Part shown: positions 1,649-39,832 of the stretch, piece after piece
Position numbering within the stretch: the stretch's first letter is position 1
How the letters are laid out: the number at the start of each line of letters is the position of its first letter
Source of the DNA: Candidatus Omnitrophota bacterium
Lineage (GTDB): Bacteria > Omnitrophota > Gorgyraeia > Zapsychrales > Zapsychraceae
Reading direction: 5' to 3'
NCBI GenBank assembly: GCA_021108075.1
Contig: JAIORP010000029.1
Location: forward strand, 10,311 to 74,310
DNA: 64,000 nucleotides
The notes under the pieces: generated by a model
What the model saw: only the letters and a program-made list of their open reading frames with translations
The model's database searches: none
Told to the model about the DNA's origin: nothing
Made by a program: the position numbers and the translations under genes

Positions 1649-4063
1649 ATGCGTTTAAGACAAAATCACATTATTTGTTTTTTTATATTGATCATTACTT
1701 TTTTCGCTTTTCTGCCCGCCTTGAGCGGTGAATTCCTGCTTTGGGATGATGATACCCATGTTTTGAATAATCGTTACGTGTCCTCTTTGTCGTTTGACAG
1801 TGTGAAGGGGATGTTCACAAGCCGCGTGAATGATATTTATATCCCATTAACGACGTTTGTTTTCGCGCTGGAATATCATTTCGCTCAATTTAATCCCATC
1901 GTTTTTCATTGTGTGAATCTTTTTCTGCATCTAGGTGTTTGTGTTCTTGTTTTCTGGTTGGCTTTGCGATTAAGGCTTTCTACCGTCGGGGCCTGTGTCG
2001 CCACTCTGATTTTTGCCGTGCATCCGATGCGGGTTGAATCTGTCGTGTGGATCACAGAGCTTAAAGATGTGCTCTACGCGTTTTTTTATTTGGCCGCGGT
2101 CCATGCGTATCTCAATTATTTGCGATATCCTTTTCAGGATAAAAAACTGAAGCCCAAACCGGCAATGGGTTGGTTGGTCTGGACGATTGTGTTTGGGAGT
2201 TTGAGTGTTTTGGCCAAGCCAATGGCTTTAAGCTTACCCTTAATTTTGTTGTTGCTGGATTGGTTTTTAGAGCGGGATCTCAGCCGCCGTTATTTTTTCG
2301 AGAAGATATGGGTGGCCATACCTGTCTGGGGGATCACATTGTGCACGTATTTAGCGCATGCCCGGTTGCCGTCTGAAACCAGTTTTCCCGGGGGCCTGAT
2401 CTGGATCTGGTCCTTTGTTTTTTACTGGACGCAGTTTTTTATCCCGGTCTACAACGTGCCGATTTATGAACTGCCCCAACCGATCGACCTTGGTGTTTAT
2501 GAGTACTACATTTCCGTGATGGCTTTTATACTTATTTTGTATTCTTTCTGGCGTTTCCGTCGGAACAAATGGTATATCTTTGCGGTCGGGTATTTCTTTT
2601 TCTCGATTTTCTTTTTGCTGCGATGGGACGCGGGCTACGACACCAATATGATCGCTGACCGTTTTATGTATTTGCCGGGTCTGGGATTTTGTCTCTTGCT
2701 TGGCAAATGGCTGGACGAGTTCTGGTATGAACGAAGACGAAGAAAGACTGCTTTGGTTCTGAGCGTTTGCGTTGTCGGCTTTTTATTTGCGCGCACCAAT
2801 CAACTCAGCCGGGTTTGGCGGACCAGTGAGTCCCTGTGGGACCATGAGTTAAAATATTATCCGACCCAACACGTCGCATTGACCAATAAGGCTAATGTTT
2901 TGTTAGAGCAGGAAGCGTATCAAGGCGCCTTGCGCGAGTCGCGTGATATCTTCGCCCGGCAGGCCCGGGGCGAGTTGAAGGATCTTGATCCTGAGCAGCG
3001 TCAGGTGCTTGGGAAAGTTTATTATCTGCGCCATCTTTATCGCTCCGCCATTAAAAGCAATCCGGAGTCTTATGACGCGAAATACAATCTGGCCCATTTG
3101 TACCGGGAGATGGGAAAGAACAGCAAGGCCATTGATCTTTACCGAAACATTATCGAAAAAAGTCCCGCCTATGAAGACGCTTATTTTGCTCTGGGGGATA
3201 TGTACCTGGTTGCGAATCGTGTGGAAGAGGCGTTAGGTATTTATCAACGGATTCTGTCACTTTGGAAGAAAGAGGAACGGTTTTATGTCGCTGTGGTCCT
3301 GGCCTTGAGTGAGCAGAGACATTTAGAAAATAAAGACAAACATCTGGTGCAGGCCATGCGCCTTGAGGTGCTTGAAAATTATATCGCCTTGATCAATGCC
3401 AAGCCGATCCAGACCGAATCGTATAAAAAATTAGGACTGATTTACCTCAGTGTAGGGGAAGACAACAGAGCGGTTTCAGCCCTGCAGGCTGTGCTGGATG
3501 AAAGACCGCGGGATATCGATGCGTTAATGTATCTCGGGCAGGTTTTTCGTAATCAGGGCCGGTTCAGGGATGCCTTGGGAACTTTTAAAAAGGTTTATGC
3601 CCTTGATCCTCAGCACATCGACGCCTTGTTCCAGCAGGGTGTCACTTATTTCCGCATGAATGATTTTGACCAGGCCCAGAAAATTTTTTTGGAGGTGACA
3701 GGCCTTCAGCCGGACCATGGCCGGGCCTATTATAATTTGGGGTATATTGCTGAAAAGACCAGCGCGCTCAAGGATGCCATGCAGTGGTATCAGAAGGCTG
3801 TCGAGCATGATCCGCGCAATCCAGAGGCCTATTACAATTTAGGGAATGTTTACGCTGTCCTGGAAATGCATTCTAAATCCAGGTTCTATTACCGACAGGC
3901 ACTGGATATGAATCCCGGGTATACGGACGCTGCGGTAAATTTATCCACGATTTATTATCTGGACGGTGATTTTACCCGGGCCTTGCAATATTTGGATGAG
4001 GCCGTTAAACTAGGGTATCAGCCCCCGGCTGAATACTTACAAATTTTAACCCCCTATCGGTAG
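1649..4063 (+). CDS. Membrane protein with N-terminal multi-pass GT39/PMT-like domain and C-terminal TPR repeats
   Basis: About 10 predicted TM helices in the first 400 aa, followed by repeated TPR-like A..Y..G/A...Y motifs (AYFALGDMY, AYYNLGYI, AYYNLGNVY). Confidence 0.7.
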   Translation: MRLRQNHIICFFILIITFFAFLPALSGEFLLWDDDTHVLNNRYVSSLSFDSVKGMFTSRVNDIYIPLTTFVFALEYHFAQFNPIVFHCVNLFLHLGVCVLVFWLALRLRLSTVGACVATLIFAVHPMRVESVVWITELKDVLYAFFYLAAVHAYLNYLRYPFQDKKLKPKPAMGWLVWTIVFGSLSVLAKPMALSLPLILLLLDWFLERDLSRRYFFEKIWVAIPVWGITLCTYLAHARLPSETSFPGGLIWIWSFVFYWTQFFIPVYNVPIYELPQPIDLGVYEYYISVMAFILILYSFWRFRRNKWYIFAVGYFFFSIFFLLRWDAGYDTNMIADRFMYLPGLGFCLLLGKWLDEFWYERRRRKTALVLSVCVVGFLFARTNQLSRVWRTSESLWDHELKYYPTQHVALTNKANVLLEQEAYQGALRESRDIFARQARGELKDLDPEQRQVLGKVYYLRHLYRSAIKSNPESYDAKYNLAHLYREMGKNSKAIDLYRNIIEKSPAYEDAYFALGDMYLVANRVEEALGIYQRILSLWKKEERFYVAVVLALSEQRHLENKDKHLVQAMRLEVLENYIALINAKPIQTESYKKLGLIYLSVGEDNRAVSALQAVLDERPRDIDALMYLGQVFRNQGRFRDALGTFKKVYALDPQHIDALFQQGVTYFRMNDFDQAQKIFLEVTGLQPDHGRAYYNLGYIAEKTSALKDAMQWYQKAVEHDPRNPEAYYNLGNVYAVLEMHSKSRFYYRQALDMNPGYTDAAVNLSTIYYLDGDFTRALQYLDEAVKLGYQPPAEYLQILTPYR

Positions 4064-4083: not shown

Positions 4084-4157
4084 GCGCCTATAGCTCAGAT
4101 GGATAGAGCGCGGCCCTCCTAAGGCCGGCGTGGGAGGTTCGAGTCCTCCTAGGCGCA
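4084..4157 (+). tRNA. tRNA-Arg (anticodon CCT)
   Basis: Cloverleaf readable: acceptor GCGCCTA/TAGGCGC, D-arm GCTCAGATGGATAGAGC, anticodon stem CGGCC/GGCCG with loop CTCCTAA, T-arm GGAGGTTCGAGTCCTCC. Confidence 0.85.
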
Positions 4158-4809: not shown

Positions 4810-4990
4810 GTGTCGTATTTTTACATAATCCAGAGATGATTCTAATTAGACTCAGAAAGGGGGGAGGAAAATTTAAGGTCGGGGTCATCAAGAAACTGGC
4901 ATAGTTTCGAAAGTAACCGGGATAGTTGAGTTGTTTTATCTTGGCCTATATAGATTTATAAAGCAAAATTTTTACTTTAAGGAGAATCAA

Positions 4991-6406
4991 ATGAGAAAAA
5001 GTATACTTTTGGCAATGATCATGGTCGCCTTTGTGGCCATGCCGGCATTTGCTAGTGTACAAAACATTAAAATCAGTGGTGGGGTTGATTCCTACTGGGC
5101 ATACCGTGAAGACTTCGATTTCGGTTATGAAGCAACCACAATCGGTGGGGACAAAATTCAAAACATATTCTTCACCATCACGAGCTTACAAGTCGATGCG
5201 GACTTAACCGACAACGTGACAGCAACAATCGCGTTAGTTAATGAAAGGGCCTGGGGTAATGATACTGATGCTACTCGAGGGCTTTCAAATTCAGGGGCTC
5301 AAACTGACGTTGAAATTGACCTCGCGTTTGTCACACTAAGAGAAATGCTTTATTCACCATTAACACTGGTTATCGGTCGTCAAAGATTACCAAAGTACGG
5401 TAATGGTTTAATCGTATCCAAGGGTACAGGCGTCGGCAATTCAAATTTAACCGATGTCGTCCAGGACTACCGTGGGATCAAGGCTATGGACGCCATCCGC
5501 GCTATTCTGGATTATGATCCGTTAACCGTTGAAATCATCTATGGTAAATTCGATTCTAACACAGTCGCGGGTGCTTCTGAGGAAGACGATGATGTCGATC
5601 TTTACGGCATCCAGACCGCTTATGAATTAGGCGATGACATGAACACATTGGTCGAAGCTTATTTCTGGGCAAAAATCAACAAAGAAACAACACAAGCAGC
5701 TGCAAATTGTGATCTTAAACCTGACACAGTTTATACACCTGGTTTACGCGCCAGCACAACCCCGATCGAAGGTTTAACCGTGTCCGGGGAAATCGCGATG
5801 CAATCAGGAACCAAAGTTATCAGTACCGCAAGAGATGCAGAAAATCAAAAACGAAAAGCCATGGCCGCTGAATTCATGGCCACGTATCAAGTTCCTGTGG
5901 CTGAAGATTATAATCCGGTTGTTTCTTATGATTATATTTATGCTTCAGGGGATAGCAACCCAGCAGATGAAACATCATCAGGTGAAGTTTCCAGAAATAA
6001 ATGGACGGCCTGGGATCCAATGCTTGAAGGCACATTAGGCGGAAGCAAGATTTTCAACGCCTTGTTCAGCTTAACAAACGTGCATGTTCATTCTTTTTCA
6101 TTGCAAGCCAATCCGATGGAAGACGTGACTTCTAAGGTCGTTTTTTCAAAATATTGGTTAGATAAAGAAACAGACGGAACAGCATGGACATTAAACCGAA
6201 CAGATACTTCAGGTGCAGAAGTTGTCGGCGCGCAAGACGATGAAACAGACCTGGGTTATGCTGTTGATCTCTACACAACTTATGACTACACAGAAGATGT
6301 TTCTATCGGAGCATTAATGTCATGGTTCGTGCCAGGCGATGTCTTTAGTAAAGACAATCAAGACGCAGCTTCACAAGTTATGGTTGATGTTAATGTTGAT
6401 TTTTAA
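4991..6406 (+). CDS. Porin-like outer-membrane beta-barrel protein, paralog 1 (ORF track start 4931; ATG 4991 with RBS AAGGAG preferred)
   Basis: Signal peptide MRKSILLAMIMVAFVAMPAFA; alternating amphipathic beta-strand pattern; C-terminal ...VNVDF ending in an aromatic residue, as in OM beta-barrels. It is a clear paralog of 6813-8210. Confidence 0.6.
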   Translation: MRKSILLAMIMVAFVAMPAFASVQNIKISGGVDSYWAYREDFDFGYEATTIGGDKIQNIFFTITSLQVDADLTDNVTATIALVNERAWGNDTDATRGLSNSGAQTDVEIDLAFVTLREMLYSPLTLVIGRQRLPKYGNGLIVSKGTGVGNSNLTDVVQDYRGIKAMDAIRAILDYDPLTVEIIYGKFDSNTVAGASEEDDDVDLYGIQTAYELGDDMNTLVEAYFWAKINKETTQAAANCDLKPDTVYTPGLRASTTPIEGLTVSGEIAMQSGTKVISTARDAENQKRKAMAAEFMATYQVPVAEDYNPVVSYDYIYASGDSNPADETSSGEVSRNKWTAWDPMLEGTLGGSKIFNALFSLTNVHVHSFSLQANPMEDVTSKVVFSKYWLDKETDGTAWTLNRTDTSGAEVVGAQDDETDLGYAVDLYTTYDYTEDVSIGALMSWFVPGDVFSKDNQDAASQVMVDVNVDF

Positions 6407-6472: not shown

Positions 6473-6812
6473 GTCCTCCTTCAGGCTCGTTCAGATTTTT
6501 CTGAACAACAAGTCTTTACTTTTCAACATGCCCATAGTTTGCGTATGTAATAAACGGTATAAGGTTGTAGGACTCTCTTAAGTGAGATAAGTATAAATGT
6601 ATTTAAACATTTGCGTTGTTTCCGTCGAGTCATGTATTAACGAAAAATAAATTGAAAAAATTCACAAAATTTATTGACCGCTTTTTATATGTATGCAAGA
6701 ATTCATGAAGTAATCAATTTATTTAAAGAAGCGTATTATTTTGATACAGATGTTGCTTGTCTTTCATATATATGTCAATAATTCAAATTGTATCTTCGGA
6801 GGAAAAACACAG

Positions 6813-8210
6813 ATGAAAAAAATTGGTTTAACAATTCTTATGTTGGCCGTAGCATCTACCTCAGCCTTTGCCGCTGTGCAAAATTTGAAAGTCAGTGGAA
6901 GTGTCCGCTCAACCTTTATTCATCGGGAAAATTTTGATCTGGGGAAAGCCCCGACAGGTGATGAAATCCAGGACATCTTCATTACCAATACCCATTTGCG
7001 GCTCGACGCCGACTTGACCGACAAAGTCTCGGCGACGATCGATTTGTTAAATGAACGGGCATGGGGTAATGACACGGCAAGCGCGGGGCTGGAGACCGGC
7101 GTGAAGATCAATCTGGCCTATGTGACCTTGCGTGAGATGCTTTATTCGCCATTGACGATTGTCGTCGGACGGCAGTTGCTCAGGTATGGTAACCAATTTG
7201 TTTTAGGGGAAAGCAAAGAACCTGTTTTTCCGCCGGGATCAAGCAATCTCAGTTTTGTGGCCTTTGATCAAAGTGACGTGGAATCCTTTGACGCGGTGAA
7301 GTTTATATTAGACTATCAACCTTTAACGATTGATATCTTCTATGCCAAGATAGATTCCAATACGGTCGCCGGGGCCTCTGAAGACGATGATGATATCGAC
7401 TTTTATGGGATCTATTCCGTGTATGATTTTGAGAATGTGGCCAAGACCAAGATTGACGCCTATTTTCTGGCTAAGATTGATAAGTATGTCGCGAATAACG
7501 CATCTCCAGCGCCGGCAACAGGTATTAAACCGGATACAATTTACATGCCGGGTTTTCGGGTCAGCAGCGGTTTAGCCGAAGGCTTGTGGACCTCGCTTGA
7601 GGTTGTCTGGGAAAGGGGGAATAAAGTTTTGAACAGTGCTACTCCGGCGGAGAACCAAAGGCGCGAGGCCTTTGCGACACAGTTATTGACTTTTTACCAG
7701 CTGCCGGTCCTGAAAGACTATAAACCCGCCCTTATCCATGAATTTACATATACAACCGGGGATAGTAATAAAACGGATACCGCTTATTCCGGAGAAGTTT
7801 CAAGAAATGTCTTCACCGCCTGGGACCGTCTGTACGAAGATCAGGATAATGGTTCGATCTTGAACACGATTGTTTCTTTATCGAACGCAGTGGCGCACAC
7901 CGTTGCCTTTCAGTTTTATCCTGTGGAAGAGTTAAAGACGGTTATCGCCTGGACCGGTCTATGGACGAACACGCCGATTTATTCCGCTTCAGAAATCATT
8001 GCCCAGCCTGACGGCTTTAACGTCGTGACGTTGACCCCGGGTCAACGTGAGATCGGTTATGAAATCGATTTGTTCATGTATTATCAATACACCGAAGATG
8101 TGGAATTTAATCTTTCGCTTGGTTGGGTCATCCTTGGTGATGCTGTCAATGATACGGCTAATCCGAACGGGCCGTTCCAGGTCCTGGCCGGGACGAAAGT
8201 TAATTTTTAG
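6813..8210 (+). CDS. Porin-like outer-membrane beta-barrel protein, paralog 2 (ORF track start 6741; ATG 6813 with RBS GGAGGA preferred)
   Basis: Signal peptide MKKIGLTILMLAVASTSAFA. Shares long blocks with paralog 1 (LTD.V.ATI.L.NERAWGNDT, LAYVTLREMLYSPLT.V.GRQ, NTVAGASE.DDD.D.YGI). C-terminal ...KVNF. Confidence 0.6.
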   Translation: MKKIGLTILMLAVASTSAFAAVQNLKVSGSVRSTFIHRENFDLGKAPTGDEIQDIFITNTHLRLDADLTDKVSATIDLLNERAWGNDTASAGLETGVKINLAYVTLREMLYSPLTIVVGRQLLRYGNQFVLGESKEPVFPPGSSNLSFVAFDQSDVESFDAVKFILDYQPLTIDIFYAKIDSNTVAGASEDDDDIDFYGIYSVYDFENVAKTKIDAYFLAKIDKYVANNASPAPATGIKPDTIYMPGFRVSSGLAEGLWTSLEVVWERGNKVLNSATPAENQRREAFATQLLTFYQLPVLKDYKPALIHEFTYTTGDSNKTDTAYSGEVSRNVFTAWDRLYEDQDNGSILNTIVSLSNAVAHTVAFQFYPVEELKTVIAWTGLWTNTPIYSASEIIAQPDGFNVVTLTPGQREIGYEIDLFMYYQYTEDVEFNLSLGWVILGDAVNDTANPNGPFQVLAGTKVNF

Positions 8211-8264
8211 TAAAATTTTAACTTGTTGATATTTAAAGGTTTAAACCTTTAATAAAATAGCACA

Positions 8265-8299
8265 AAAGCATAAACGATTTAGCGTTTATGCTTTTGTTG
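8265..8299 (+). terminator. Rho-independent terminator after porin paralog 2
   Basis: AAAAGCATAAACG-atttag-CGTTTATGCTTTT, then a GTTGT T-rich tail. Confidence 0.7.
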
Positions 8300-8536
8300 T
8301 GTCTGGCCCTGCTGTCCGGGAAGTGTCCTGAAGTTTTTCATATTTTCGCAATTAACCTTTCTGGTCGGGATATTAAATTTTATTTTTTGTTTCTCGTCGA
8401 CAAAGTCATTTTTTTATGGCTAAAAAAATATGAAAATATGTTTTATTATGTATTTTAATTTGTTAAGATACACATAATAAGGATTAAAATAACATAAATA
8501 GCGAAACTAAGCATAAAAACGAGAGAGTTAGAACCC

Positions 8537-9124
8537 GTGTCCGATAAAATGAATAGAGATGAAATTTATGATCATTTAGCCCAGGTATATTTGGGTAAAA
8601 GAAAAGACGCGGATGTTAAGAGTAAAAAACAATATGATGTTTGGCTTCTGATTAACATTTTTATTATGGTCATTATTTTTGCCAGCGCAACGTATGGGTT
8701 GACAGCCTTTTTAACCCAAAAGAGGCCTGAGTTGCGCAGCAAAGTTATTTATACCCTCTATCAGGGGCCAATCCAAATTATGTACAACTTTAGGAATAGT
8801 GAGAACCCAACTAAAGAATTTACATTATCTGTTAAAAATATCGATGCGACGAAATACAAGAAATTAGTTTTTCACGCCCGCGCAAGAGAAGAAGGATCCC
8901 CGGGCATTGTCAAGGTTGTCTTAAGCAATCGAAGGAATGAAACCGCGCATTTTTATATCAGAGGTGTCGACCTGAAGTGGAAAAGTTATACGATCCCGTT
9001 TGAGGACTTTAAAGAAATTACGGATTGGAAAGGGTTGCAGAATATTTCCTTTGTGCTTGAAAGCTGGAATGTTGAGAAAGACAAAGGTGTCGTTCTCATT
9101 GAAGACATCGAATTTTCAGGGTGA
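8537..9124 (+). CDS. Hypothetical membrane-anchored protein with a CBM11/CIA30-like beta-sandwich domain
   Basis: Single TM helix (WLLINIFIMVIIFASATYGLTAFL). The C-terminal 130 aa follow a pattern typical of CBM/CIA30-like domains (KWKSYTIPFEDF...ISFVLES...GVVLIEDIEFSG). Confidence 0.45.
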   Translation: MSDKMNRDEIYDHLAQVYLGKRKDADVKSKKQYDVWLLINIFIMVIIFASATYGLTAFLTQKRPELRSKVIYTLYQGPIQIMYNFRNSENPTKEFTLSVKNIDATKYKKLVFHARAREEGSPGIVKVVLSNRRNETAHFYIRGVDLKWKSYTIPFEDFKEITDWKGLQNISFVLESWNVEKDKGVVLIEDIEFSG

Positions 9125-9226
9125 TAAATATTAATACGAAATTTCGTGTTAAATAGAATATTTATGATAGACAATTTAATAAAACGTGCGTGATTAACGT
9201 GCGCTGAAAAAAGGGGGCTCAGAAAG

Positions 9227-10360
9227 ATGAAGATTATATCAGTTGCTAATCAAAAAGGGGGTTGTGGGAAAACAACATCAGCCATTAATTTAGCATCTGC
9301 GTTAGGTCAAAACGGAAAACGCGTTTTATTGGTCGATTTGGATCCGCAAGCCCACGCTTCTTTAGGACTCAACATTGAAAGTCAAGACAGCATGTATAAT
9401 GTTATATCAAAATTAACCCCTAGAAAACTGAAGATAACAGATATTATTCATCGCGTTGAGGATTGTTTTGACATTGTGCCCTCCAATATCCTGGTCGGAA
9501 CTTTGGAGCAGGAACTCGCTGATGAAATTGGCCGTGAGTTGAAATTAACCGAAATCATGAAGCCCATGCGGGAACTTTATGATTATATCCTTATTGACTG
9601 TCCTCCGAGTTTAGGCATTTTGACGGTCAATTCGATCCGCGTCAGCGATGAGATCATTATTCCTGTTGAAACATCCCGTTTCTCCATGCAGGGAGTTGAT
9701 CACATTATGGATATCGTGAAGTTAGTCCGTGACCGTTTGAACCATGCCGTTAAATGCCGTATTTTGATTACCATGTTTGATTCCCGTCTGCGTCATTCGT
9801 TTTCCATGCTGGATACCTTCAGGCAGAAGTTTAAAGATTTATTGTTCGACACGATCGTTCATACCAATGTTAAGTTGAAAGAATCCGCTGTGATGGGGCA
9901 AACTGTTTCTTGTTTTGACAAGTACTGCCGGGGCTCTAAAGACTATTACACATTGTCTAAAGAAATTATCAGCTTAGAGCGCCAGGAAAAAGAACAAGAA
10001 GCCCGTACGGTTTTCCGTTCATTGTCCTCTCGGATGCAAAAGATGATCGAGAAAGAAACACGACAGGTCATCAGAGACACAAAGTTTGCCATCAAAGCGC
10101 CCGGGGCAAAAGCCGTTTATGTGACCGGATCATTCAATGACTGGTCTTTGGATGATTCCTGCCGCCTGCGTGAAGCTTCAATGGGGCAATGGGAAATCGA
10201 TATTCCATTAAAAGCTGGCCAATACGAATATCAGTTTATCGTTGACGGAGTATGGAAAGAAGATCCCAGCAATCCGGCGCAGGAACGCAATGTGTATGGT
10301 GACAATAATTCTGTGATGGATGTTAAATCTGAAGCGCAGCCTGTCTTTGAGAGGTTATAA
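9227..10360 (+). CDS. ParA/MinD-family ATPase fused to a C-terminal AMPK-beta-type glycogen-binding domain (CBM48)
   Basis: Deviant Walker A KGGCGKTT and ParA core (LLVDLDPQAHAS, DCPPSLGILTVNS). The C-terminal AKAVYVTGSFNDWS...GQYEYQFIVDGVWKEDPSNP...GDNNSVMDV aligns closely with the AMPK beta GBD (VYLSGSFNNWS...EHQYKFFVDGQWTHDPSEP...GTVNNIIQV). Confidence 0.8.
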   Translation: MKIISVANQKGGCGKTTSAINLASALGQNGKRVLLVDLDPQAHASLGLNIESQDSMYNVISKLTPRKLKITDIIHRVEDCFDIVPSNILVGTLEQELADEIGRELKLTEIMKPMRELYDYILIDCPPSLGILTVNSIRVSDEIIIPVETSRFSMQGVDHIMDIVKLVRDRLNHAVKCRILITMFDSRLRHSFSMLDTFRQKFKDLLFDTIVHTNVKLKESAVMGQTVSCFDKYCRGSKDYYTLSKEIISLERQEKEQEARTVFRSLSSRMQKMIEKETRQVIRDTKFAIKAPGAKAVYVTGSFNDWSLDDSCRLREASMGQWEIDIPLKAGQYEYQFIVDGVWKEDPSNPAQERNVYGDNNSVMDVKSEAQPVFERL

Positions 10361-10567
10361 TCACTGATTTCATTGATTCAAATGGGGGATTTTATTTTTA
10401 TTGAGACGTGTTTTATTTTTCCCTTGTGCCCTGTCGAGTTCGTTGTCCTGTCATGCTTTCATGTCTAAATGCCGGGCCGTAGATTTCTTTGGGGATAAGT
10501 TTTCGCGATAGTAAGGCGTGAAATGAAATTATCTCAGTGAGATACAAAAATAATTTATTCAGTTATA

Positions 10568-11326
10568 ATGTCATTATTTGAAAAAATATTAAGCGGGCTG
10601 AAAAGCCTGGTTGATTTATTTCCTCGTAGAAAAAAGAAATACAATCGTAATATTCCAAAAGTCCGGCGCACACCGCCTGCCGATAGAAAGAAACCGCAAT
10701 CACGCTCGACAAGGGCTTTCGGCGCGAGACCAAAAAAGAAGCAGACCTCAGCACGATCAACAAAACGCAGACAAACGGGCTCTTCTGCGAAGGCCTCCGC
10801 AAGCAAGATTTCTCCCTCAAAAAAACAGACCGGAAAAAAAACGGAGCCTCGTTATGGAAAAGAGACAATTGTAAAGAAGGCATCCGGGACACCAAAGAAG
10901 GCGCTTGCGGAAACACCGAAAGCCACCCGCCGCAAAGATTCGAAATCTTCAGCGAAGACGCCAGGGAAACAGCGGCCGGGCTCCCGGCGCAAGGCCAGGC
11001 TGATGGAGCGATCGCCTTCAAAAAGGCGAACTCAGCCCAGAGGAAAAATTCAATCAGGAAAACTGAATTCGTTGGATGAGGAAAAATACATTGGAGCCAT
11101 CACCCATTATTTCTCCCGGATAAATGTCGTGGTCTTAAAAATGGAGAATGGCCCATTGCGTCTGGGAGATGATATACATATCAGGGGCAGGAAAACGAAC
11201 TTTAAGCAACCCGTCGAATCTTTACAAGTCGAAAGTTTTGATGTTAAAAAAGCCGAGAAAAATCAATTGGTTGGACTGAAAGTCCTCAAGCCGGTGACGG
11301 TCGGTGATCAGGTCTTTAAAATTTAA
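10568..11326 (+). CDS. Highly basic low-complexity protein (K/R/S/T-rich N-terminal 170 aa) with a C-terminal EF-Tu-domain-2-like beta-barrel
   Basis: The N-terminus is about 35% Lys+Arg (RRKKKYNRNIPKVRRTPPADRKKPQSRSTRAFGARPKKKQ...). The C-terminus GAITHYFSRINVVVLKMENGPLRLGDDIHIRG...LVGLKVLKPVTVGDQVFKI resembles a translation-protein beta-barrel. The overlapping ORFs 10555-11021(-) and 10611-10874(+) are composition artefacts. Confidence 0.55.
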   Translation: MSLFEKILSGLKSLVDLFPRRKKKYNRNIPKVRRTPPADRKKPQSRSTRAFGARPKKKQTSARSTKRRQTGSSAKASASKISPSKKQTGKKTEPRYGKETIVKKASGTPKKALAETPKATRRKDSKSSAKTPGKQRPGSRRKARLMERSPSKRRTQPRGKIQSGKLNSLDEEKYIGAITHYFSRINVVVLKMENGPLRLGDDIHIRGRKTNFKQPVESLQVESFDVKKAEKNQLVGLKVLKPVTVGDQVFKI

Positions 11327-11643
11327 TGGAGTGAATTCCTCGTAGCTCTGCTGCGAGGAGAAGCACTCCCGGCGGGAATTTTCCACCTTTATTTAAGGCG
11401 GGGATAAGAGTCCGCTCCAGCGGCTTTATCGCTGGACAACGTCTTGCGCCGGGAGCGCTTGAAGCAGAATGCCCCACGGGTGTGAACCCGCGGGATCTAT
11501 TGGATATGGGTGGAATGAATGATCGTGAGAAATTTTATGCCGACATTGTCATCGGCGCACTGGCCTGCTTTTTTAATTAAGGCCTGGCAAAAATATCAGG
11601 ACAGTTTAAACCATTAACGCAAAAATTAGGGAAAGAGGAGTAT

Positions 11644-12078
11644 ATGCCGAAAAAAAAGGAAGTAGGGGCAAAAGAAAAGAATCTCATGCGCCGGTATCTC
11701 ATCTGGTGCTACAAAACCACAAAAGAAGATCTCGACCGCATTGAACGCTATTTTACACAACGTGTTGTCGATGAACAGTTGTTAAAATGTTTACAAAAGG
11801 ATCCTGCGATCAAGAAAGGAGCAGATAAAGACCTCGTTAAGGCGGTTGATGATTTTCAACAGTACATGAATATTAAACTTGAAAAGGCGGTCAGGCAAAA
11901 GTTTGCAGACCAGGATCAGGCGGTTTTTCATCCAGAGTATCATTATTTGAAACTGCGGTTTGAGGCCATCGAGAAGACCGTTGTGCATTTTTTTGGTAAG
12001 GTCGAGTTGAGCCATATTGAGGCTTTATATGAAACGGAGATGACGCGCCGGATATTAGAGGCGCGGGAGCACACATAA
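11644..12078 (+). CDS. hypothetical protein
   Basis: 144-aa ORF preceded by the RBS AAAGAGGAG. No recognisable motif. Confidence 0.45.
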   Translation: MPKKKEVGAKEKNLMRRYLIWCYKTTKEDLDRIERYFTQRVVDEQLLKCLQKDPAIKKGADKDLVKAVDDFQQYMNIKLEKAVRQKFADQDQAVFHPEYHYLKLRFEAIEKTVVHFFGKVELSHIEALYETEMTRRILEAREHT

Positions 12079-12205
12079 TGAACTGTGCGCGTCGCCGTTC
12101 TCATTATTCTATGACCAACAGGCATGCTAAACGTTTATTTCTTATTGATAGGAACATTGTGTGGGCGGGGTTTGGATTGCTGTGGTTGCCTCAGGGAGAC
12201 AAATA

Positions 12206-12490
12206 TTATTTGCGACGCATATAACGGTAGTCTTTCATGCGTTGTTTTTGACGCTCCATATAATCTTTATATTGTTCACGGACTTCACGCATGCGGTCCT
12301 CTTGTGTTTTTTGGGTGAGGGCTTGCTTTTCTTCGTTATCTTTGACGGCTTTTTCCTTAGGGGGTTCTTCGATCGAAGTCTCAGGTTTAAGGAGCCCAAA
12401 GCTCAAACCAATGGAATGCATCGCGCCTAAAAACATGACGCCACTATAAAGGACAGCCGCTATTATAATTGCTCCAAACCAGCTTTTCAT
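12206..12490 (-). CDS. Small secreted or membrane-anchored charged protein (hypothetical)
   Basis: N-terminal hydrophobic segment MKSWFGAIIIAAVLYSGVMFLGA, followed by a K/E/R-rich tail. Confidence 0.4.
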   Translation of the reverse strand: MKSWFGAIIIAAVLYSGVMFLGAMHSIGLSFGLLKPETSIEEPPKEKAVKDNEEKQALTQKTQEDRMREVREQYKDYMERQKQRMKDYRYMRRK

Positions 12491-12777
12491 ACTATAATTA
12501 TATAATATTTTAAAATATCAATCAATGTTTGTAAGGGTTTAATCTGGCAACTTAAATACCATTTAATGGATTTTCATTTTATGGTGCATGCGTCCTATTA
12601 AAAGACAAAAGATATCGGCAACACATTAAGCCTTTTCCATACAGAGGAACATTATTTTAAGACAATTACAGTGAATATGCAATATCAGATGTAAATTTTC
12701 GTAAAATATTGATGTTTTGGTCAAATGATTGATATAATAACAAACAATTTAGGGGTTCATGAAAAAGGGGAGAAGCA

Positions 12778-13218
12778 ATGGAAAAAAAATCAAAAAAGAA
12801 AACAGAGCAAGAACCAAAACAATTTGATTTAAGCAAAGAGTGGGAGATGACAAAGAAACACTTGCGTGTTTTTAGCAAGGAAGCGGTTGAACTTGCCAAG
12901 AAAGGAGAAAAAGAGCTGATTAAATTTTCCAAGATTGGAAAATTGCATGTTGATAATACAGCGGTATCCATTAAGAAAGAAAAATTGTATTATCAGATCG
13001 GTAAAGAATACGTGAAGTCTAAAGGAGAACCGCAGAAGAACGAAGAGTTAAAGAAACTTGTCGACGCCTTAAAGAATTTAGATAAAGAGCAAACCGTCAT
13101 CAAATCCAGAATTAAAAAGGGTCAACCAGAAAGTCCCGCTCCGGACAAAAAAACGTCCACCAAGAAAAAGACAATCAAAAAGAAAACGGTCAAGAAAAAA
13201 GTGGTTGATAGTGAATAA
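12778..13218 (+). CDS. Lysine-rich coiled-coil protein with histone-H1-like C-terminal tail (phasin/PhaF-like architecture)
   Basis: RBS AAAGGGGAG; K/E-rich helical N-terminal region; C-terminal KKTSTKKKTIKKKTVKKKVV tail. Confidence 0.5.
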   Translation: MEKKSKKKTEQEPKQFDLSKEWEMTKKHLRVFSKEAVELAKKGEKELIKFSKIGKLHVDNTAVSIKKEKLYYQIGKEYVKSKGEPQKNEELKKLVDALKNLDKEQTVIKSRIKKGQPESPAPDKKTSTKKKTIKKKTVKKKVVDSE

Positions 13219-13249
13219 TTGGGTGGCTATTTTTAGATATGAATATGAT

Positions 13250-13291
13250 ACAGGTGTTAGCAGCGTATGTTTGTCTAACACCTGTTTTTTT
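13250..13291 (+). terminator. rho-independent terminator
   Basis: ACAGGTGTTAG-cagcgtatgtttgt-CTAACACCTGT followed by TTTTTTT. Confidence 0.7.
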
Positions 13292-13355
13292 GTCCGTCAG
13301 ATATCTCTTTGTCAGATGCTGTCAGGTTGAAAGCGGATGTATTCGGTAGAAAAAA

Positions 13356-14108
13356 ATGGATAATTATTTTATTAACAATCCGATATTTTTAAAATATAAG
13401 AAGACCTTTAACTTTTCGAAATTCCGCAGGGAAAAATGTTTGAAGTCGGTTTTCGTTAATGAAAGGATCGTTGAACTGCCATTTGTGTTGCAGGCGCTGA
13501 GCGCTTTGCCGCAAAGGAGTTGTGTCCTTGATGTCGGCTGCAACGAGAGTCCGCTGGCTTTACAATTGGCCTGTTTGGGGTATCGGGTGACAGGATATGA
13601 TTTCCGCGGCTACCCGTATAAACACCCTAACTTGGATGCTTTGAAGGGTGATATATTGAACATGCCGTTTCAAGATGATTATTATGATGCGGTAACCGCC
13701 GTTTCCACGGTCGAACATCTTGGTCTGGGTTTTTATGATGACCCCCTGATGGCTGAAGAGTCTGACCGACGGGCCATTCAGGAAATAAAACGGGTCCTAA
13801 AGAAAGATGGCTTATTGCTTCTCACTGTTCCTTATGGCCGGAAGTCGATCAGTGAACAGCAACGCATCTACAACCAGGGCAGTTTGCGATGCTTATTGCA
13901 AGATTTTGAAGTTGAGGTTATATCTTTTTTTAAGAATGTCTTTGTCGATCCTGAAAAGTTGAACACCTGGGTGCAAACGTCCCAGTCGGATATCAGTCAA
14001 GTCGCTTCTGCTCAGACGACCAATGGTGTTTGCCTGGTTAAGGCGAGAAATAAAAAGAAAAAAGGCAAAATGGAAGCAGGGAATAAGTTTGGACGAGGAC
14101 ATGATTAA
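13356..14108 (+). CDS. class I SAM-dependent methyltransferase
   Basis: Motif I VLDVGCNESPLALQLACLGYRVTGYD, with an acidic loop after it. Confidence 0.7.
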   Translation: MDNYFINNPIFLKYKKTFNFSKFRREKCLKSVFVNERIVELPFVLQALSALPQRSCVLDVGCNESPLALQLACLGYRVTGYDFRGYPYKHPNLDALKGDILNMPFQDDYYDAVTAVSTVEHLGLGFYDDPLMAEESDRRAIQEIKRVLKKDGLLLLTVPYGRKSISEQQRIYNQGSLRCLLQDFEVEVISFFKNVFVDPEKLNTWVQTSQSDISQVASAQTTNGVCLVKARNKKKKGKMEAGNKFGRGHD

Positions 14109-14303: not shown

Positions 14304-16040
14304 ATGCGGATATCCATGAAGAAAGACGGACTCACACGCTGGCTTGATTTCATTCTGCTCAGCTGTGTGATTGTATTTATAACCTGGCAGCCGTTTTATT
14401 TGCACGGTACGCTTAATACGTTTGAGCATGGACTGTATTTGCCAGGGATTCAGGGGATCCTTGATGGGAAAATGCCTTATCGGGATTTTATGTATTTGCG
14501 TGGACCATTTGAATTGTATGTGCCCGCATTCATGATGATGGTTGCCGGTCGAAATGTTGCCGTCCTAGCGACTTATTTTTATGCCGGTACCGTCTTAACA
14601 TTATTAATGTGCCTTTTGATTGCCAGAGAGGTTCTCGATAGGCGCTGGTTGTTGGCGCTCTTTGTTTTTGTCCTCACCGCGCGCACTTTTCCGCGCGTGG
14701 TTTTTACGTATTGGGGTGGGTTGCGCTACGTCTGGGGGCTGTTATCCGTCTGGTTCTTGATAAAATTTTTTAAAAGTTATAAGAAATCATGGTTGTTTTT
14801 CTGTGGGATAACGACGGCGATTGCGTTCTGGACAAGTATCGAAATGGGCTTTTGCTCAGGCATGATGGCGGGGCTGAGCTTGGTGATCATCGCCGGTCTA
14901 TCCAGGTTAAAGGAATCGGATCATAAACCGAAGATACCGCTGATCTCTGGGTTCGTTGTTTTTGGAGGAGCCGTTTTGGTGCTCAGTGTGCCCTACGCGA
15001 TATATTTAATGGCCAACGGGGCTTTGATACCTTTTATCGATAATGTGCTGACCATTGTCACACGCCTAAACCAAACCTTTCCACAAACGGATCTTGTTCC
15101 ATTGAACCTCGGTGATGTGCTGCTTGGGATGCTAAGCCCTGCCAGTAAGAATTTTCGTCATTTAACGCCTATCTACACCTATCTGATCATGGCGGGTTAT
15201 CTGTACATCCGGGCGCGTTTGCGGCGTTGGCAAACACAGGATTCCTGCGTGCTGGTAATTTGGATCTATGGGGCCTTGCTCTATGCGACGTCTTTTCGTA
15301 ATCTTTGGGCTTCCCAGTTTGAGATGGCCTTGCAACCAGAGAAAATTTTGTTGTTCTGTTTGATTCACCTTTTAATTGACTTTTTGTTGCGCTGTCGCGA
15401 CGATTTGAGAACGAATTTGCAACCGGAACAGGTCAGCCGGCTTAATTGGTGGAAAAAGCGTTTGGGCCTAGGGCTGATTTATTTTTACCTTGTCAGTGTC
15501 ATTATGTCTTCAATCATTTACCCTTTTGTGCGTTTTTCCAGGCGATTTACCAGCATTAAATATGTTTTTTGCCTGCTGAAGGGGGAAGATCCCGCGCAAT
15601 TGTCTCCGCTCAGGGATCAACAGCAGAAGAAATTAGCCATTCCCCCTCTAAAGGGGCTGACTGTTCCTGCCTGGCAGGCGGATGATTTTTATGAAATCTA
15701 TGACTTTGTCCAAAAAAATGTGCCGGTTGATGAGCCCGTATTGTTTTATCCGGAGATGGCCGCTTACTATTTTATTGTTGACCGACCTTATTTAAGCCGT
15801 TTTCCCATGGGGACTTTTCCCTGGTTTAATGAGCGTTGGTACGGGGACTTTAAATGCGCCCTCATTGGGCAAAAACCACGTTACGCTATCTTCCCCAAGG
15901 AGTTACCGGATTATTTTGACAAGCAACATTTTACTGTCGAAGCCAATCGGGTCAAATATAGCGAAACGATGGATTTTATCAGGACAAATTATAAACCGAT
16001 TAAGAAGACACATTCATTTGTTATTTGGGAGAATATATAG
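14304..16040 (+). CDS. Large polytopic membrane protein (putative membrane glycosyltransferase-like; hypothetical)
   Basis: More than 10 predicted TM segments across 578 aa. No soluble catalytic motif was recognised. Confidence 0.45.
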   Translation: MRISMKKDGLTRWLDFILLSCVIVFITWQPFYLHGTLNTFEHGLYLPGIQGILDGKMPYRDFMYLRGPFELYVPAFMMMVAGRNVAVLATYFYAGTVLTLLMCLLIAREVLDRRWLLALFVFVLTARTFPRVVFTYWGGLRYVWGLLSVWFLIKFFKSYKKSWLFFCGITTAIAFWTSIEMGFCSGMMAGLSLVIIAGLSRLKESDHKPKIPLISGFVVFGGAVLVLSVPYAIYLMANGALIPFIDNVLTIVTRLNQTFPQTDLVPLNLGDVLLGMLSPASKNFRHLTPIYTYLIMAGYLYIRARLRRWQTQDSCVLVIWIYGALLYATSFRNLWASQFEMALQPEKILLFCLIHLLIDFLLRCRDDLRTNLQPEQVSRLNWWKKRLGLGLIYFYLVSVIMSSIIYPFVRFSRRFTSIKYVFCLLKGEDPAQLSPLRDQQQKKLAIPPLKGLTVPAWQADDFYEIYDFVQKNVPVDEPVLFYPEMAAYYFIVDRPYLSRFPMGTFPWFNERWYGDFKCALIGQKPRYAIFPKELPDYFDKQHFTVEANRVKYSETMDFIRTNYKPIKKTHSFVIWENI

Positions 16041-25100: not shown

Positions 25101-26531
25101 GTGAACACAGAAGATCAATTATACATTGAAAGTAAAAAAGAATATTTTGATTCTGTCGCAGAAAAAAGAGGATATTGGCGCAAGAAAAATCACTATTACC
25201 ATGATGAGTTAATGCGGTATTTACGGTTTTTAATCCCTGAGAACTCTTCTGTGTTAGAGATTGGTTGCTATGCCGGGGAGAAACTCGCCGCCCTTAACCC
25301 CAAAAAGGGTGTCGGCGTTTGTTTTAGCAAGAAGATGATTGATGTTGCTAAAGAAAAGCATCCCCATCTGGATTTTCATTTTTGTGATATTGACCATAAG
25401 TTGAATATTGAAGAGAAATTTGACTATATTATCGTCAGCAATACCGTTGGTTACGCCTATGACCTGCAAAGCACATTTCATGAACTAAAGAAGGTCTGCC
25501 ATCCCGGCACAAAAATTATTTTATTTTATCATAGTCATTTTTGGAAATATTTATTGAAGCTCGCAGAAGTTTTGCGTATGCGTATGGTCTGGCCGAATCA
25601 GCACTGGCTCACGAAAGAAGATTTGGTGAACTTGTTTTATTTAAATGATTTCAGCCTGATCCGTTCAAGTGAGCAGATGATCATTCCTTTTTATATCCCT
25701 TTGATTTCCGCGATATTCAATCGTTTTATCGCTCATCTGCCTGTTATCAGGGGATTCGCGTTAAATAATATTATGATTTTTCAACCCCTTGGTCAACGCA
25801 AAGATCCAAAGGAGGTAACCTGCTCGGTCATCATTCCTTGCCGGAACGAAAAGGGTAATATTGAACCCGCGATACAAAGAACGCCAATGTTAGGGGCGCA
25901 TACCGAATTTATTTTTGTTGAGGGGCACTCTCAGGATGGGACATTAGAAGAATGCCAGCGGGTGAAAGAGAAGTATCCCCAGCATGATATCAAGGTGTTT
26001 TCCCAAACGGGCAAAGGCAAAGGGAATGCCGTCCGGGAAGGCTTTGCGGCTGCTACCGGTGATGTCTTGATGATTCTCGACGCAGACTTAACCACTCCTC
26101 CTGAGGATATGCCGAAGTTTTTTGAAGCGATTGCAACAGGTAAGGGTGAGTTTATTAACGGGACAAGGTTGGTTTACCAAATGGAAAAGAATGCGATGCG
26201 TTTTTTGAATATGTTGGCGAATAAATTTTTCAGTGTCGCATTAACCTATTTACTCGGGCAGTATTTAAAAGACACATTATGTGGAACGAAAGTGCTGTGG
26301 CGTGAGGACTATTTTAAAATTGAGCAAGGGCGCAGTTACTTTGGGGACTTCGATCCTTTTGGCGATTTTGATTTGTTGTTTGGGGCCGCTAAATTGAATT
26401 TGAAAATTATTGAAATTCCGGTCCAATACAAAGCCCGCACTTATGGTGAGACGCAAATCAGCCGGTTCAAGCATGGCTGGTTGTTAATAAAAATGACAGT
26501 TTTCGCGATGAGGAAAATTAAGTTTATCTAA
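25101..26531 (+). CDS. Fusion protein: N-terminal class I SAM methyltransferase plus C-terminal GT2 glycosyltransferase (dolichyl-phosphate sugar transferase-like); GTG start
   Basis: Methyltransferase motif I VLEIGCYAGEKL. The GT2 half has CSVIIPCRNEKGNI and LDADLTTPPEDM (DxD-like). Confidence 0.65.
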   Translation: MNTEDQLYIESKKEYFDSVAEKRGYWRKKNHYYHDELMRYLRFLIPENSSVLEIGCYAGEKLAALNPKKGVGVCFSKKMIDVAKEKHPHLDFHFCDIDHKLNIEEKFDYIIVSNTVGYAYDLQSTFHELKKVCHPGTKIILFYHSHFWKYLLKLAEVLRMRMVWPNQHWLTKEDLVNLFYLNDFSLIRSSEQMIIPFYIPLISAIFNRFIAHLPVIRGFALNNIMIFQPLGQRKDPKEVTCSVIIPCRNEKGNIEPAIQRTPMLGAHTEFIFVEGHSQDGTLEECQRVKEKYPQHDIKVFSQTGKGKGNAVREGFAAATGDVLMILDADLTTPPEDMPKFFEAIATGKGEFINGTRLVYQMEKNAMRFLNMLANKFFSVALTYLLGQYLKDTLCGTKVLWREDYFKIEQGRSYFGDFDPFGDFDLLFGAAKLNLKIIEIPVQYKARTYGETQISRFKHGWLLIKMTVFAMRKIKFI

Positions 26532-26556
26532 CCGTTTAGAATTCTCGGGATACGCT

Positions 26557-27336
26557 ATGGGAAAACTTATGGATGCGTTAAGGTTGCCGGAATTAGAAGG
26601 TGTCGATGACCTGGATGATGCTTCGACGACGGAATTACATCGAGAAATTATTCTTAAGAAAGGTTTTTTAAAGAAGATTTATGTCGATCTTTATCAGCAA
26701 TATAATGATGTTATCCGGGAGTATGATGAGCATGGTTTGTTTGTTGAATTAGGCAGCGGTGGGGGGTTTGTTAAATCCAAATTGCCCGGAGTCATCACGT
26801 CTGATATTTTATCTTTATCCCATATTGATATCTGTTTTAACGCAGAGGCCATCCCCTTCAGGGACCATTCCGTTGACGCTTTTTTTATGATTGATGTCCT
26901 TCATCACATTAAGAATCCGGCTAAAATTATCCAGGAAATGAATCGTTGTTTAAAAAAAGGGGGTCGGGTGTTAATGACCGAGCCGGCCAATACAGCCTGG
27001 AGTCGATTTATTTATCAAAATTTTCACCATGAAAATTTTGACCCGACGAGCGGCTGGCTTATCGAGGGTACAGGCCCCATGTCTTCCGCAAATGGGGCAT
27101 TGCTTTGGATTATATTTTTTAGAGACGTTGAAAAGTTTAACAATGATTTTCCCTCGTTAAACATTACAAAGAAGATGAATCATACGCCGTTTAGATATTT
27201 GGTGAGTGGAGGGGTTTCGATGAAACAGTTGCTGCCAACATGGACGTATGGTTTCTTTAAAGGTTTTGAATGGATCTTAACACCGTTCAGTAATCTGCTG
27301 GGGATGTTTTGTACCGTTGAACTGAAAAAGAAATAA
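26557..27336 (+). CDS. SAM-dependent methyltransferase
   Basis: Motif I FVELGSGGG; the post-I HIKNP-type region fits a methyltransferase type 11/12 fold. Confidence 0.6.
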   Translation: MGKLMDALRLPELEGVDDLDDASTTELHREIILKKGFLKKIYVDLYQQYNDVIREYDEHGLFVELGSGGGFVKSKLPGVITSDILSLSHIDICFNAEAIPFRDHSVDAFFMIDVLHHIKNPAKIIQEMNRCLKKGGRVLMTEPANTAWSRFIYQNFHHENFDPTSGWLIEGTGPMSSANGALLWIIFFRDVEKFNNDFPSLNITKKMNHTPFRYLVSGGVSMKQLLPTWTYGFFKGFEWILTPFSNLLGMFCTVELKKK

Positions 27337-27365
27337 ATTTTTAAAGAAAGACTTTTTTATATTTT

Positions 27366-39758: not shown

Positions 39759-39832
39759 CGGGGCGTAGCGCAGCCGGCTAGCGCGCAACGTTCGGGACGT
39801 TGAGGTCGACGGTTCGAATCCGTCCGCCCCGA
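39759..39832 (+). tRNA. tRNA-Pro (anticodon CGG)
   Basis: Acceptor CGGGGCG/CGCCCCG, anticodon stem CAACG/CGTTG with loop TTCGGGA, T-arm GACGGTTCGAATCCGTC. TTGACT lies about 25 nt upstream. Confidence 0.85.

Follow-up and report, generated by a model that had tools for sequence, protein, structure and literature searches.

The DNA analyzed here, called the window throughout, is a 64,000-nt stretch from a Candidatus Omnitrophota bacterium (Gorgyraeia; Zapsychrales; Zapsychraceae; GCA_021108075.1, JAIORP010000029.1 positions 10,311-74,310, forward strand). It encodes a 377-aa protein in which a ParA/MinD-type ATPase is joined through a linker to a C-terminal CBM48 carbohydrate-binding module. 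ParA/MinD ATPases are a general bacterial positioning machinery whose cargos, now being cataloged by the field, include DNA, carboxysomes, chemoreceptor arrays, flagella, and the divisome. Literature searches found no paper linking ParA to CBM48 or to glycogen, and term searches of a 2024 ParA/MinD review and of a multi-cargo study turned up no mention of glycogen or of storage granules. The database names of the protein are "AAA family ATPase" at NCBI (identical protein) and "chromosome partitioning protein" at JGI. The ParA-CBM48 fusion is visible in databases yet only generically annotated, and it is undescribed in the searchable literature. The gene and its parts are given below, with the evidence in parentheses; alignment A1 comprises 36 sequences chosen among the best 120 homologues of the window fusion, and the AlphaFold (AF2) model was built from the 36-sequence alignment with a mean predicted local distance difference test (pLDDT) score of 76.6.

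9227-10360, + strand: ParA-CBM48 fusion open reading frame (ORF), 377 aa
9227..9976, + strand: deviant Walker A ATPase domain of the ParA/Soj type, covering aa 1-250 (AAA_31, PDB, Foldseek)
9977..10081, + strand: linker, aa 251-285 (A1; AF2 helices 240-261 and 268-281)
10082..10360, + strand: CBM48/AMPK-beta-type domain (aa 286-369), short tail, and stop codon (Pfam, 1z0n, pLDDT)

A deviant Walker A ATPase joined to an AMPK-beta-type module

The gene is preceded, ~10 nt 5′ of its ATG, by the Shine-Dalgarno-like sequence AAGGGGG. The assignment of the N-terminal 250 aa to the ParA-type deviant Walker ATPases, made in an initial annotation of the window, was borne out, as was the ORF itself. Pfam AAA_31 (PF13614) matches aa 1-176 with E=1.3e-54 (185 bits, cutoff 27), and CbiA matches the ATPase with E=9e-19 (68 bits). 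The Walker A motif KGGCGKT lies within NQKGGCGKTT (aa 8-17), with K10 as the signature Lys. Residue conservation across phyla was assessed on 52 full-length fusions (16 Omnitrophota, 36 distant), in all of which K10, K15, D37, D39, and D124 (Walker B) are invariant; D37/D39 and D124 line up, respectively, with the Walker A′ motif and the Walker B motif of Soj. The patterns used for retrieval included NQKGGCGK; the invariance of the Cys in KGGCGK among the retrieved loci is therefore circular, and it was put to no evidential use.

The closest PDB sequence match to aa 1-255 is ParA from Myxococcus xanthus (MxParA, 8ray, E=1.9e-49), followed by the Thermus and Helicobacter Soj proteins (TtSoj and HpSoj, E ~1e-36), with McdA (E=1e-15) and MinD (E=1e-14) being far weaker matches. 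The top 50 PDB structures retrieved by Foldseek with the AF2 model are all ParA/Soj/MinD-type or related SIMIBI P-loop proteins (e.g., the nitrogenase Fe protein), with target-normalised TM scores of ~0.8, and the list is headed by Soj/ParA structures. The window fusion belongs to the ParA/MinD deviant Walker A P-loop ATPase superfamily. Its product contains no hydrophobic segment and is therefore cytoplasmic.

Basic residues for nonspecific DNA (nsDNA) binding include Bs R189 and are known for two of these relatives. An R238E change in MxParA abolishes nsDNA binding, and the DNA-contact lysines of HpSoj are K199, K227, K230, and K247 (PMC6393308). Fusion residue K216, invariant across A1, aligns with both MxParA R238 and HpSoj K230; at the positions of the other HpSoj contacts (K199, K227, and K247) the fusion has F192, T213, and Y233, respectively, with the invariant basic residues R187, R189, K232, and R235 nearby. 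Nucleoid binding by the fusion ATPase is plausible on this comparison.

Across A1, a near-invariant ATPase is followed by a variable acidic spacer, a conserved short helix, and a well-conserved CBM. The linker extends the C-terminal helix of the ATPase, passes into the spacer, which ranges from 0 to ~150 aa among the A1 homologues and is mostly acidic, and ends in the conserved helix PxSxKMxxxVxxE.

The initial annotation had described the last ~90 aa as aligning almost residue-for-residue with the glycogen-binding domain (GBD) of the AMPK beta subunit. The domain assignment holds: Pfam AMPK1_CBM (PF16561) matches aa 293-369 (E=3.1e-14; 53.4 bits, gathering cutoff 26.8), and CBM_48 (PF02922) matches the C-terminus with 23.9 bits (cutoff 22.4). 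The families suggested for checking, CBM48/AMPK1_CBM for the C-terminal part and CbiA/ParA for the N-terminal part, thus both score above cutoff. The degree of similarity was overstated, although the domain match lies well outside what chance would give: the best PDB match to the C-terminal 123 aa, the AMPK beta1 GBD (1z0n), was found by phmmer with E=2.6e-10 in a gapped alignment over ~85 residues. Next in the ranking are the CBM48 modules of pullulanase, SEX4, LSF1, and GlgB. The predicted CBM has pLDDT values of 88-95.

To compare sugar-binding residues, the CBM was mapped onto rat AMPK beta1 through the 1z0n alignment with S108 as anchor. AMPK W100, W133, G147, and N150 correspond to W306, W343, G358, and N361, all invariant in A1, and two further positions differ, with L146 replaced by Tyr/Phe and T148 by Asp. 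The equivalents of W100, W133, and G147 are likewise invariant in all 52 fusions across phyla, and the N150 position is Asn or Asp in 51 of them. Judged from these alignments, the sugar-site signature is under selection at the level of the whole family. Conservation of the carbohydrate-binding Trp and Lys residues had been proposed as a check on the GBD assignment; both Trp are kept, and the Lys, at the K126 position, is Gln in the subclade of the window protein and Lys/Arg elsewhere. All 36 distant fusions carry K/R at this position, and the 16 Omnitrophota fusions divide into eight with Gln, seven with Arg, and one with Lys. Since the other clades have K/R, Gln is a derived trait of the window's subclade, and the affinity or the ligand in this subclade may therefore differ from the AMPK type.

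The module itself is generic, as 8,608 representative clusters from many phyla match the fusion CBM at E<=1e-3. Tandem copies (3-18) of the same CBM48-type module also occur in many proteins of diverse phyla (P0121-P0270), a common form being ~480 aa long with four copies, and a 1812-aa protein of Ca. Epulopiscium viviparus contains 18 matched stretches.

Distribution of the fusion and its conserved neighbors

The best 120 homologues (364-474 aa) share 55-78% identity with the window protein, and every one contains both PF13614 and PF16561. A scan of one genome per GTDB species with patterns derived from A1 returned at least 563 relatives, and the best 80 loci (numbered with the prefix L below) were fetched. 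Among these 80, 44 are Omnitrophota-type, with 54-79% identity over the ATPase part, and 36 are distant, with full-length identities, CBM included, of 33-46%. The metagenome-assembled genomes (MAGs) behind the distant loci are labeled Omnitrophota, Planctomycetia/Phycisphaerae, "delta proteobacterium", Myxococcota, Desulfobacterales, Spirochaetaceae, Eisenbacteria, and Ca. Auribacter. By MAG label, the phyla with the fusion are Omnitrophota, Myxococcota, Desulfobacterota, Planctomycetota, Spirochaetota, and Auribacterota, and the fusion-bearing contigs of Myxococcota and Desulfobacterota type reach 6.2 Mb. The best 120 matches to a Myxococcota-type fusion were all further MAG proteins with this architecture, and none of them came from a named cultured species. 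The architecture had been called unusual in the initial annotation; this is true of the literature and untrue of nature, where the fusion is carried by at least 78 species-representative genomes from several phyla. Within Candidatus Omnitrophota, the fusion belongs to the core genes of the chromosome.

A neighbor-joining (NJ) tree of the 52 fusion ATPases (251 columns, 100 bootstraps), in which MxParA, TtSoj, and HpSoj were the only three references, separated the fusions from these references in 99 of 100 bootstraps. Myxococcota-labeled fusions did not group with M. xanthus ParA. The tree thus points to the fusion ATPases being a distinct multi-phylum ParA clade.

The neighboring genes with conserved positions are as follows.

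1649-4063: TPR protein, 804 aa, upstream of the module
4931-6406 and 6741-8210: a paralogous pair of genes for outer-membrane beta-barrels of the Alginate_exp type (AlgE family), both with signal peptides
8549..9124, + strand: up195, single-pass membrane protein (ATG of homologues at 8549; mechanical ORF from GTG 8537)
10568..11326, + strand: dn252, candidate partner protein, isoelectric point (pI) 11.35
11644-12078, + strand: dn144, conserved and syntenic
12206-12490, - strand: dn94, conserved and syntenic
12778-13218, + strand: dn146, conserved and syntenic, with a Lys-rich tail

The upstream gene product, up195, carries a transmembrane (TM) helix at ~aa 33-51 (counted from ATG 8549), and its model (pLDDT 84.4) consists of a long N-terminal helix that includes the TM segment, followed by a 9-strand beta-sandwich resembling CBM11/CIA30. 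Its N-terminal peptide, IYDHLAQVYLGK, is invariant in 30 sequences that average ~57% identity to the window protein. All 473 homologues retrieved are from Omnitrophota and are annotated as hypothetical, with one UniRef entry named "CBM11 domain-containing". In each of the 44 Omnitrophota-type loci up195 lies directly 5′ of the fusion, even where identity falls to 24-30%, and divergent versions (F3) are found upstream of the fusion in seven more distant loci; homologues were undetected in the Myxococcota-, Desulfobacterota-, and Phycisphaerae-type loci examined. The charges flanking the TM helix suggest that the topology is probably N-in, C-out, with the peptide cytoplasmic and the CBM11-like domain periplasmic. 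The initial annotation had correctly placed a membrane-anchored CBM/CIA30-like protein immediately upstream of the fusion (8537/8549-9124). Its further suggestion that this neighbor fits a granule function suffers from the predicted topology, since a domain that is probably periplasmic could not contact a cytoplasmic granule.

In most Omnitrophota loci, the TPR and AlgE-family porin genes are syntenic with the module. Between the second porin gene and up195 lies a perfect 15-bp hairpin (8262-8297), and the TPR and porin genes therefore probably form a separate transcription unit. Apart from this hairpin, promoter and terminator scans gave counts near shuffle expectation and were uninformative.

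The basic protein encoded downstream, which had been noted for its extreme charge, is indeed present and conserved. As a whole, dn252 has 69 K+R against 19 D+E. It begins with the amphipathic peptide MSLFEKILSGLKSLVDLF, continues with a Lys/Arg-rich tract (aa 21-170, 52 K+R vs 7 D+E), and ends in a small beta-barrel (~aa 172-252) with a weak likeness to EF-Tu domain 2 (PF03144, 20.6 bits, below cutoff); no sequence relatives of dn252 were found in the PDB. Most Omnitrophota-type loci (38 of those listed) encode a dn252-type barrel downstream of the fusion, and the proteins with this barrel start either with a short amphipathic helix, as in the window's subclade, or straight away with a poly-Lys tract. 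Comparison of neighborhoods among ParA-CBM48 homologues, which the initial annotation had recommended, thus found the positions of both up195 and dn252 to be conserved in Omnitrophota.

Beyond this phylum, the gene directly 3′ of the fusion encodes a protein starting with K-LGRGLEDISxxFLS in eight distant loci (L050, twice; L058, L062, L063, L065, L068, L073, and L077), and degenerate LGRGL-type peptides occur in L060, L074, L076, L079, and L085. By sequence, the LGRGL peptide is very similar to the N-terminal motif with which ParB binds ParA; a pocket at the dimer interface has been described for ParB (PMC12462528). The fusion is accordingly followed by a non-ParB gene of one of two kinds, the LGRGL type in other phyla and the type with a polybasic/amphipathic N-terminus in Omnitrophota. 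The prevailing view in the field is that partners of ParA/MinD ATPases work through an N-terminus that is disordered and positively charged (PMC10241942). Homology between the N-terminus of dn252 and the LGRGL peptide was considered and rejected; the likeness is a loose amphipathic/basic one, and the two are treated as analogous. Some LGRGL partners are themselves ParA/MinD-like, as in L068 (AAA_31 at 1e-9) and L050 (degenerate P-loop). The Myxococcota-type operon runs in the order MerR-like gene, ParA-CBM, partner of 255-272 aa, and NucS-like gene. LGRGL partner genes, located at 7128-8045 and ~9863 in L050 and at 4476-5462 in L068, are often followed by a gene for a NucS_C-like protein, and in some loci PilZ and bifunctional-nuclease (BFN) genes lie upstream.

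Between the module and rpsO lie dn144, dn94, and dn146, which are Omnitrophota-specific; one encodes a small TM protein. Their homologues occur in the same order in L004-L006 and in several of L007-L020, and Pfam and NCBIfam scans gave none of the three an assignment. They may belong to the same functional unit as the fusion.

Some relatives carry additional genes in this region. A gene for a Cys-rich repeat protein, absent from the window, sits between the dn252 and dn144 homologues in some loci; in L006 (12271-15255) it encodes 994 aa with ~25 repeats of C..G..CG....NCG..V.CP..C, and L004 (12957-15263) and L005 (14529-15035) have antisense ORFs. Overlapping the 3′ end of the fusion in L004 (11244-11567) and L005 (11232-11444) is a small membrane-protein gene with a weak MamF_MmsF match and no counterpart in the window. 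Farther downstream in the window, a DUF268-like methyltransferase gene (13356-14108) adjoins the gene for a 578-aa polytopic membrane protein with no Pfam match (14304-16040), homologues of which lie downstream of the module in L018 and L019. Three methyltransferase-domain genes occupy 25101-28103, the first (476 aa) combining methyltransferase and GT2 glycosyltransferase domains; 3′ of this cluster, on the minus strand, are two genes of unknown type and LigT- and CinA-like genes.

Comparison with known ParA/MinD systems

The fusion is most similar in sequence to chromosomal ParA/Soj (8RAY; TtSoj 1WCV/2BEK; HpSoj 6IUB), with which it shares the fold, the deviant Walker A motif, the signature Lys, and 33-37% identity over the ATPase domain. 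It also retains a basic residue, K216, at the key nsDNA position (Mx R238/Hp K230), and the partner in related fusion loci has an LGRGL N-terminal peptide like that of ParB in ParABS systems. Unlike Soj/ParA, the fusion carries a linker and a CBM48, belongs to a separate clade, has no ParB/parS in its neighborhood, and falls below the cutoff of the NCBIfam ParA_partition equivalog NF041546 (112.7 bits, cutoff 180); of the four HpSoj DNA lysines, three have no Lys at the same position in the fusion. Scans of the window and of ~1.0 Mb from 90 loci found no GERRxRA-type ParB motif, and motif scans found no second deviant Walker A gene in the window or the fetched loci. The parS consensus had two matches at three mismatches in the window against 1.9 expected by chance, and the region 8150-13400 contained only chance-level short repeats in place of centromere-like iterated ones.

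Several other classes were rejected. The initial annotation had named plasmid partition as the outcome that would speak against its proposal; no parB/parS adjoins the fusion, the top plasmid ParA matches listed stop at ~residue 250, and a coverage of >=80% of the query is reached by a single record out of at least 5,000 plasmid ParA matches. The 98.8-kb contig is an ordinary housekeeping chromosomal segment, and the window contains rpsO-pnp-ftsK, a RodZ-like gene, miaB, a riboflavin operon, xerC/D, and the mraZ-dcw cluster. An Rfam scan of the window identified two tRNAs only (4084-4157 and 39759-39832). Every 2-kb bin has a positive GC skew, and the + strand carries nearly all genes; the window therefore falls inside a single replichore and includes neither origin nor terminus.

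MinD, which is also a ParA/MinD ATPase with a C-terminal appendage, was rejected because the fusion ends in a CBM, its TIGR01968 score of 50 is below the cutoff of 213, and the locus tables contain no min genes. The appendage of MinD is an amphipathic membrane-targeting helix, whereas that of the fusion is a 90-aa beta-sandwich CBM with no minC/minE nearby. BcsQ resembles the fusion in being a ParA/MinD protein tied to polysaccharide biology, and a TPR protein, beta-barrel porins, and a CBM-like membrane protein lie near the fusion. It was rejected as well: TIGR03371 scores 69 against 157.85, no BcsA/BcsB is encoded in the neighborhoods, and the porin genes are cut off from the module by the terminator-like hairpin. 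The Pfam CBP_BcsQ match (46.8 bits) is generic.

McdA/McdB and the ParC, PpfA, PomZ, MipZ, and FlhG systems provide an organizational parallel, featuring a stand-alone ParA ATPase with an adjoining dedicated non-ParB partner gene, a partner with a charged and probably disordered N-terminus, and a presumed large non-DNA cytoplasmic cargo. These systems leave cargo recognition wholly to the partner, whereas the fusion has a cargo-binding-type domain covalently within the ATPase; no microcompartment, chemotaxis, or flagellar genes lie near the fusion. The rat AMPK beta1 CBM (1Z0N) is the best match to the C-terminal domain, with the W100/W133/G147/N150 equivalents kept, and differs in belonging to a kinase scaffold subunit rather than being joined to a P-loop ATPase, and in having Lys at position 126 where the window's subclade has Gln.

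A proposed positioning module with a built-in carbohydrate link

With its fused architecture, separate clade, conserved partners, and a neighborhood free of ParB/parS, the fusion may be the ATPase of a chromosomal ParA/MinD positioning module separate from ParABS, in which the link to the cargo or matrix is built in as CBM48. We put the probability of this reading at roughly 0.45. Glycan binding, DNA binding, stimulation by a peptide, and the nature of the cargo are inferred. ATP-bound fusion dimers would present two CBM48 modules and grip a cytoplasmic alpha-glucan (glycogen) particle by avidity; by analogy with MinD, ATP-dependent dimerisation could allow the C-terminal appendage to bind a surface only as a dimer. 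The ATPase body would meanwhile hold the nucleoid through K216 and neighboring basic residues, and the N-terminal peptide of the downstream partner would trigger ATP hydrolysis and release. Through repeated binding and release, the granule would be distributed and partitioned, or else held at the nucleoid or envelope. In Omnitrophota, up195 may bring the ATPase to the inner membrane or regulate it there via its invariant N-terminal peptide, and would thereby add a membrane-anchored site for binding or regulation. The more specific proposal that ParA-CBM48 and its downstream partner make up a dedicated ATP-driven system for glycogen-granule partition and positioning in at least 5-6 phyla is possible, if rather doubtful.

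As the fusion CBM is cytoplasmic, intracellular glycogen would be its natural ligand, and the constancy of the CBM while its neighbors change between phyla argues for a ligand common to all carriers. Glycogen synthesis was inferred for most Omnitrophota MAGs from Ace Lake, including Ca. Zapsychrus exili, with three genera (Kappaea, Aadella, and Orphnella) having trehalose synthesis only, and Auribacterota are also reported as glycogen synthesisers (PMC8542988, PMC9324843). Ca. Zapsychrus exili carries the fusion (P0120). The supplements of PMC8542988 list no partition genes. A link between the fusion CBM and glycogen is plausible.

Several observations weigh against the proposed positioning module or its glycogen cargo. 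The tether to a glucan or glycogen-like granule suggested by the initial annotation retains the Trp/Gly/Asn site and is called into question by Q336 at the K126 position, where Gln is present in all 36 sequences of A1; in the isolated AMPK beta1 module, K126Q or W100G abolishes glycogen binding (PMC6274970). No glg or other glycogen-metabolism gene adjoins the fusion in any locus examined. An NCBIfam type IX secretion system (T9SS) plug model matches the CBM region with E=4.9e-7, and the AMPK1_CBM-like fold is therefore not exclusively a glycogen binder. On the ATPase side, the fusion retains just one of the four DNA-contact lysines of HpSoj at its exact position, and the K216 position is K/R in 26 of the 36 distant fusions and A/S/T in the other 10. 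A ParA permanently joined to its cargo also fits the classical diffusion-ratchet scheme poorly, and the dynamics of the proposed cycle are therefore speculative. Finally, the evidence is computational throughout, and every carrier found is uncultured.

In a different explanation, which we consider unlikely, the CBM48-like domain is a protein-protein interaction module and the fusion serves an envelope-associated positioning or assembly system around up195. The up195 peptide would recruit the ATPase to the inner membrane and the periplasmic CBM11-like domain would contact envelope polysaccharide, in a loose analogy with BcsQ or FlhG organizing envelope machines. In AMPK the CBM additionally serves as a protein interface to the kinase domain, which lends this explanation credit, as do the invariant Gln at the K126 position in the window's subclade, the T9SS plug match, the synteny with the TPR protein and AlgE-family porins, and the absolute linkage to up195 (44/44 loci) with its invariant peptide. 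However, loci without a detected up195 still keep the W/W, Gly, N/D, and K/R signature, the perfect hairpin between the porin genes and up195 makes co-transcription unlikely, and the BcsQ resemblance consists of a generic Pfam match and a subthreshold NCBIfam score (69 vs 157.85).

It is quite improbable that the fusion is simply the Omnitrophota chromosome-partition ParA (Soj) with an accessory domain, its ParB/parS being encoded elsewhere in the genome and its CBM being one that might couple segregation to carbon status. Chromosomal ParA/Soj proteins are the closest solved relatives of the ATPase, the JGI name agrees, the surroundings are housekeeping in character (near ftsK, xerC/D, and the dcw cluster), no second ParA was found in the window or fetched loci, and the key nsDNA-binding position is basic. 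Set against this are the lack of an adjoining parB in ~90 loci and of parS in the window, a different conserved partner gene downstream, a clade apart from the Soj references (99/100 bootstraps), and a ParA_partition score of 112.7 where 180 is needed. Cultured Myxococcota/Desulfobacterota have canonical ParABS, as described for M. xanthus (PMC12462528), and the fusion in these phyla is therefore most likely an extra paralogue. A very improbable alternative has the CBM acting as an AMPK-like regulatory sensor, in which occupancy by glycogen or oligosaccharide would alter ATPase activity or dimerisation and link some other positioning task, performed with dn252 and up195, to stored carbon. Such a role is consistent with relatedness in sequence to the CBM of AMPK beta, by way of which glycogen inhibits the kinase (PMC6274970), and with the conserved helix between ATPase and CBM; the linker of 0 to ~150 aa is acidic and of low complexity, and a flexible tether therefore fits better than allosteric coupling.

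The clade defined by the fusion is widespread and strongly conserved, with a built-in carbohydrate-binding module and a partner gene of its own. In Omnitrophota, an uncultured phylum of very small cells, up195, ParA-CBM48, and dn252 form a conserved three-gene module. If the proposed glycogen-granule system is real, it would be the first partition and positioning machinery for a polysaccharide storage body and would extend the list of ParA/MinD cargos to polysaccharide, and it would follow a different coupling logic in which the adaptor is fused to the motor.

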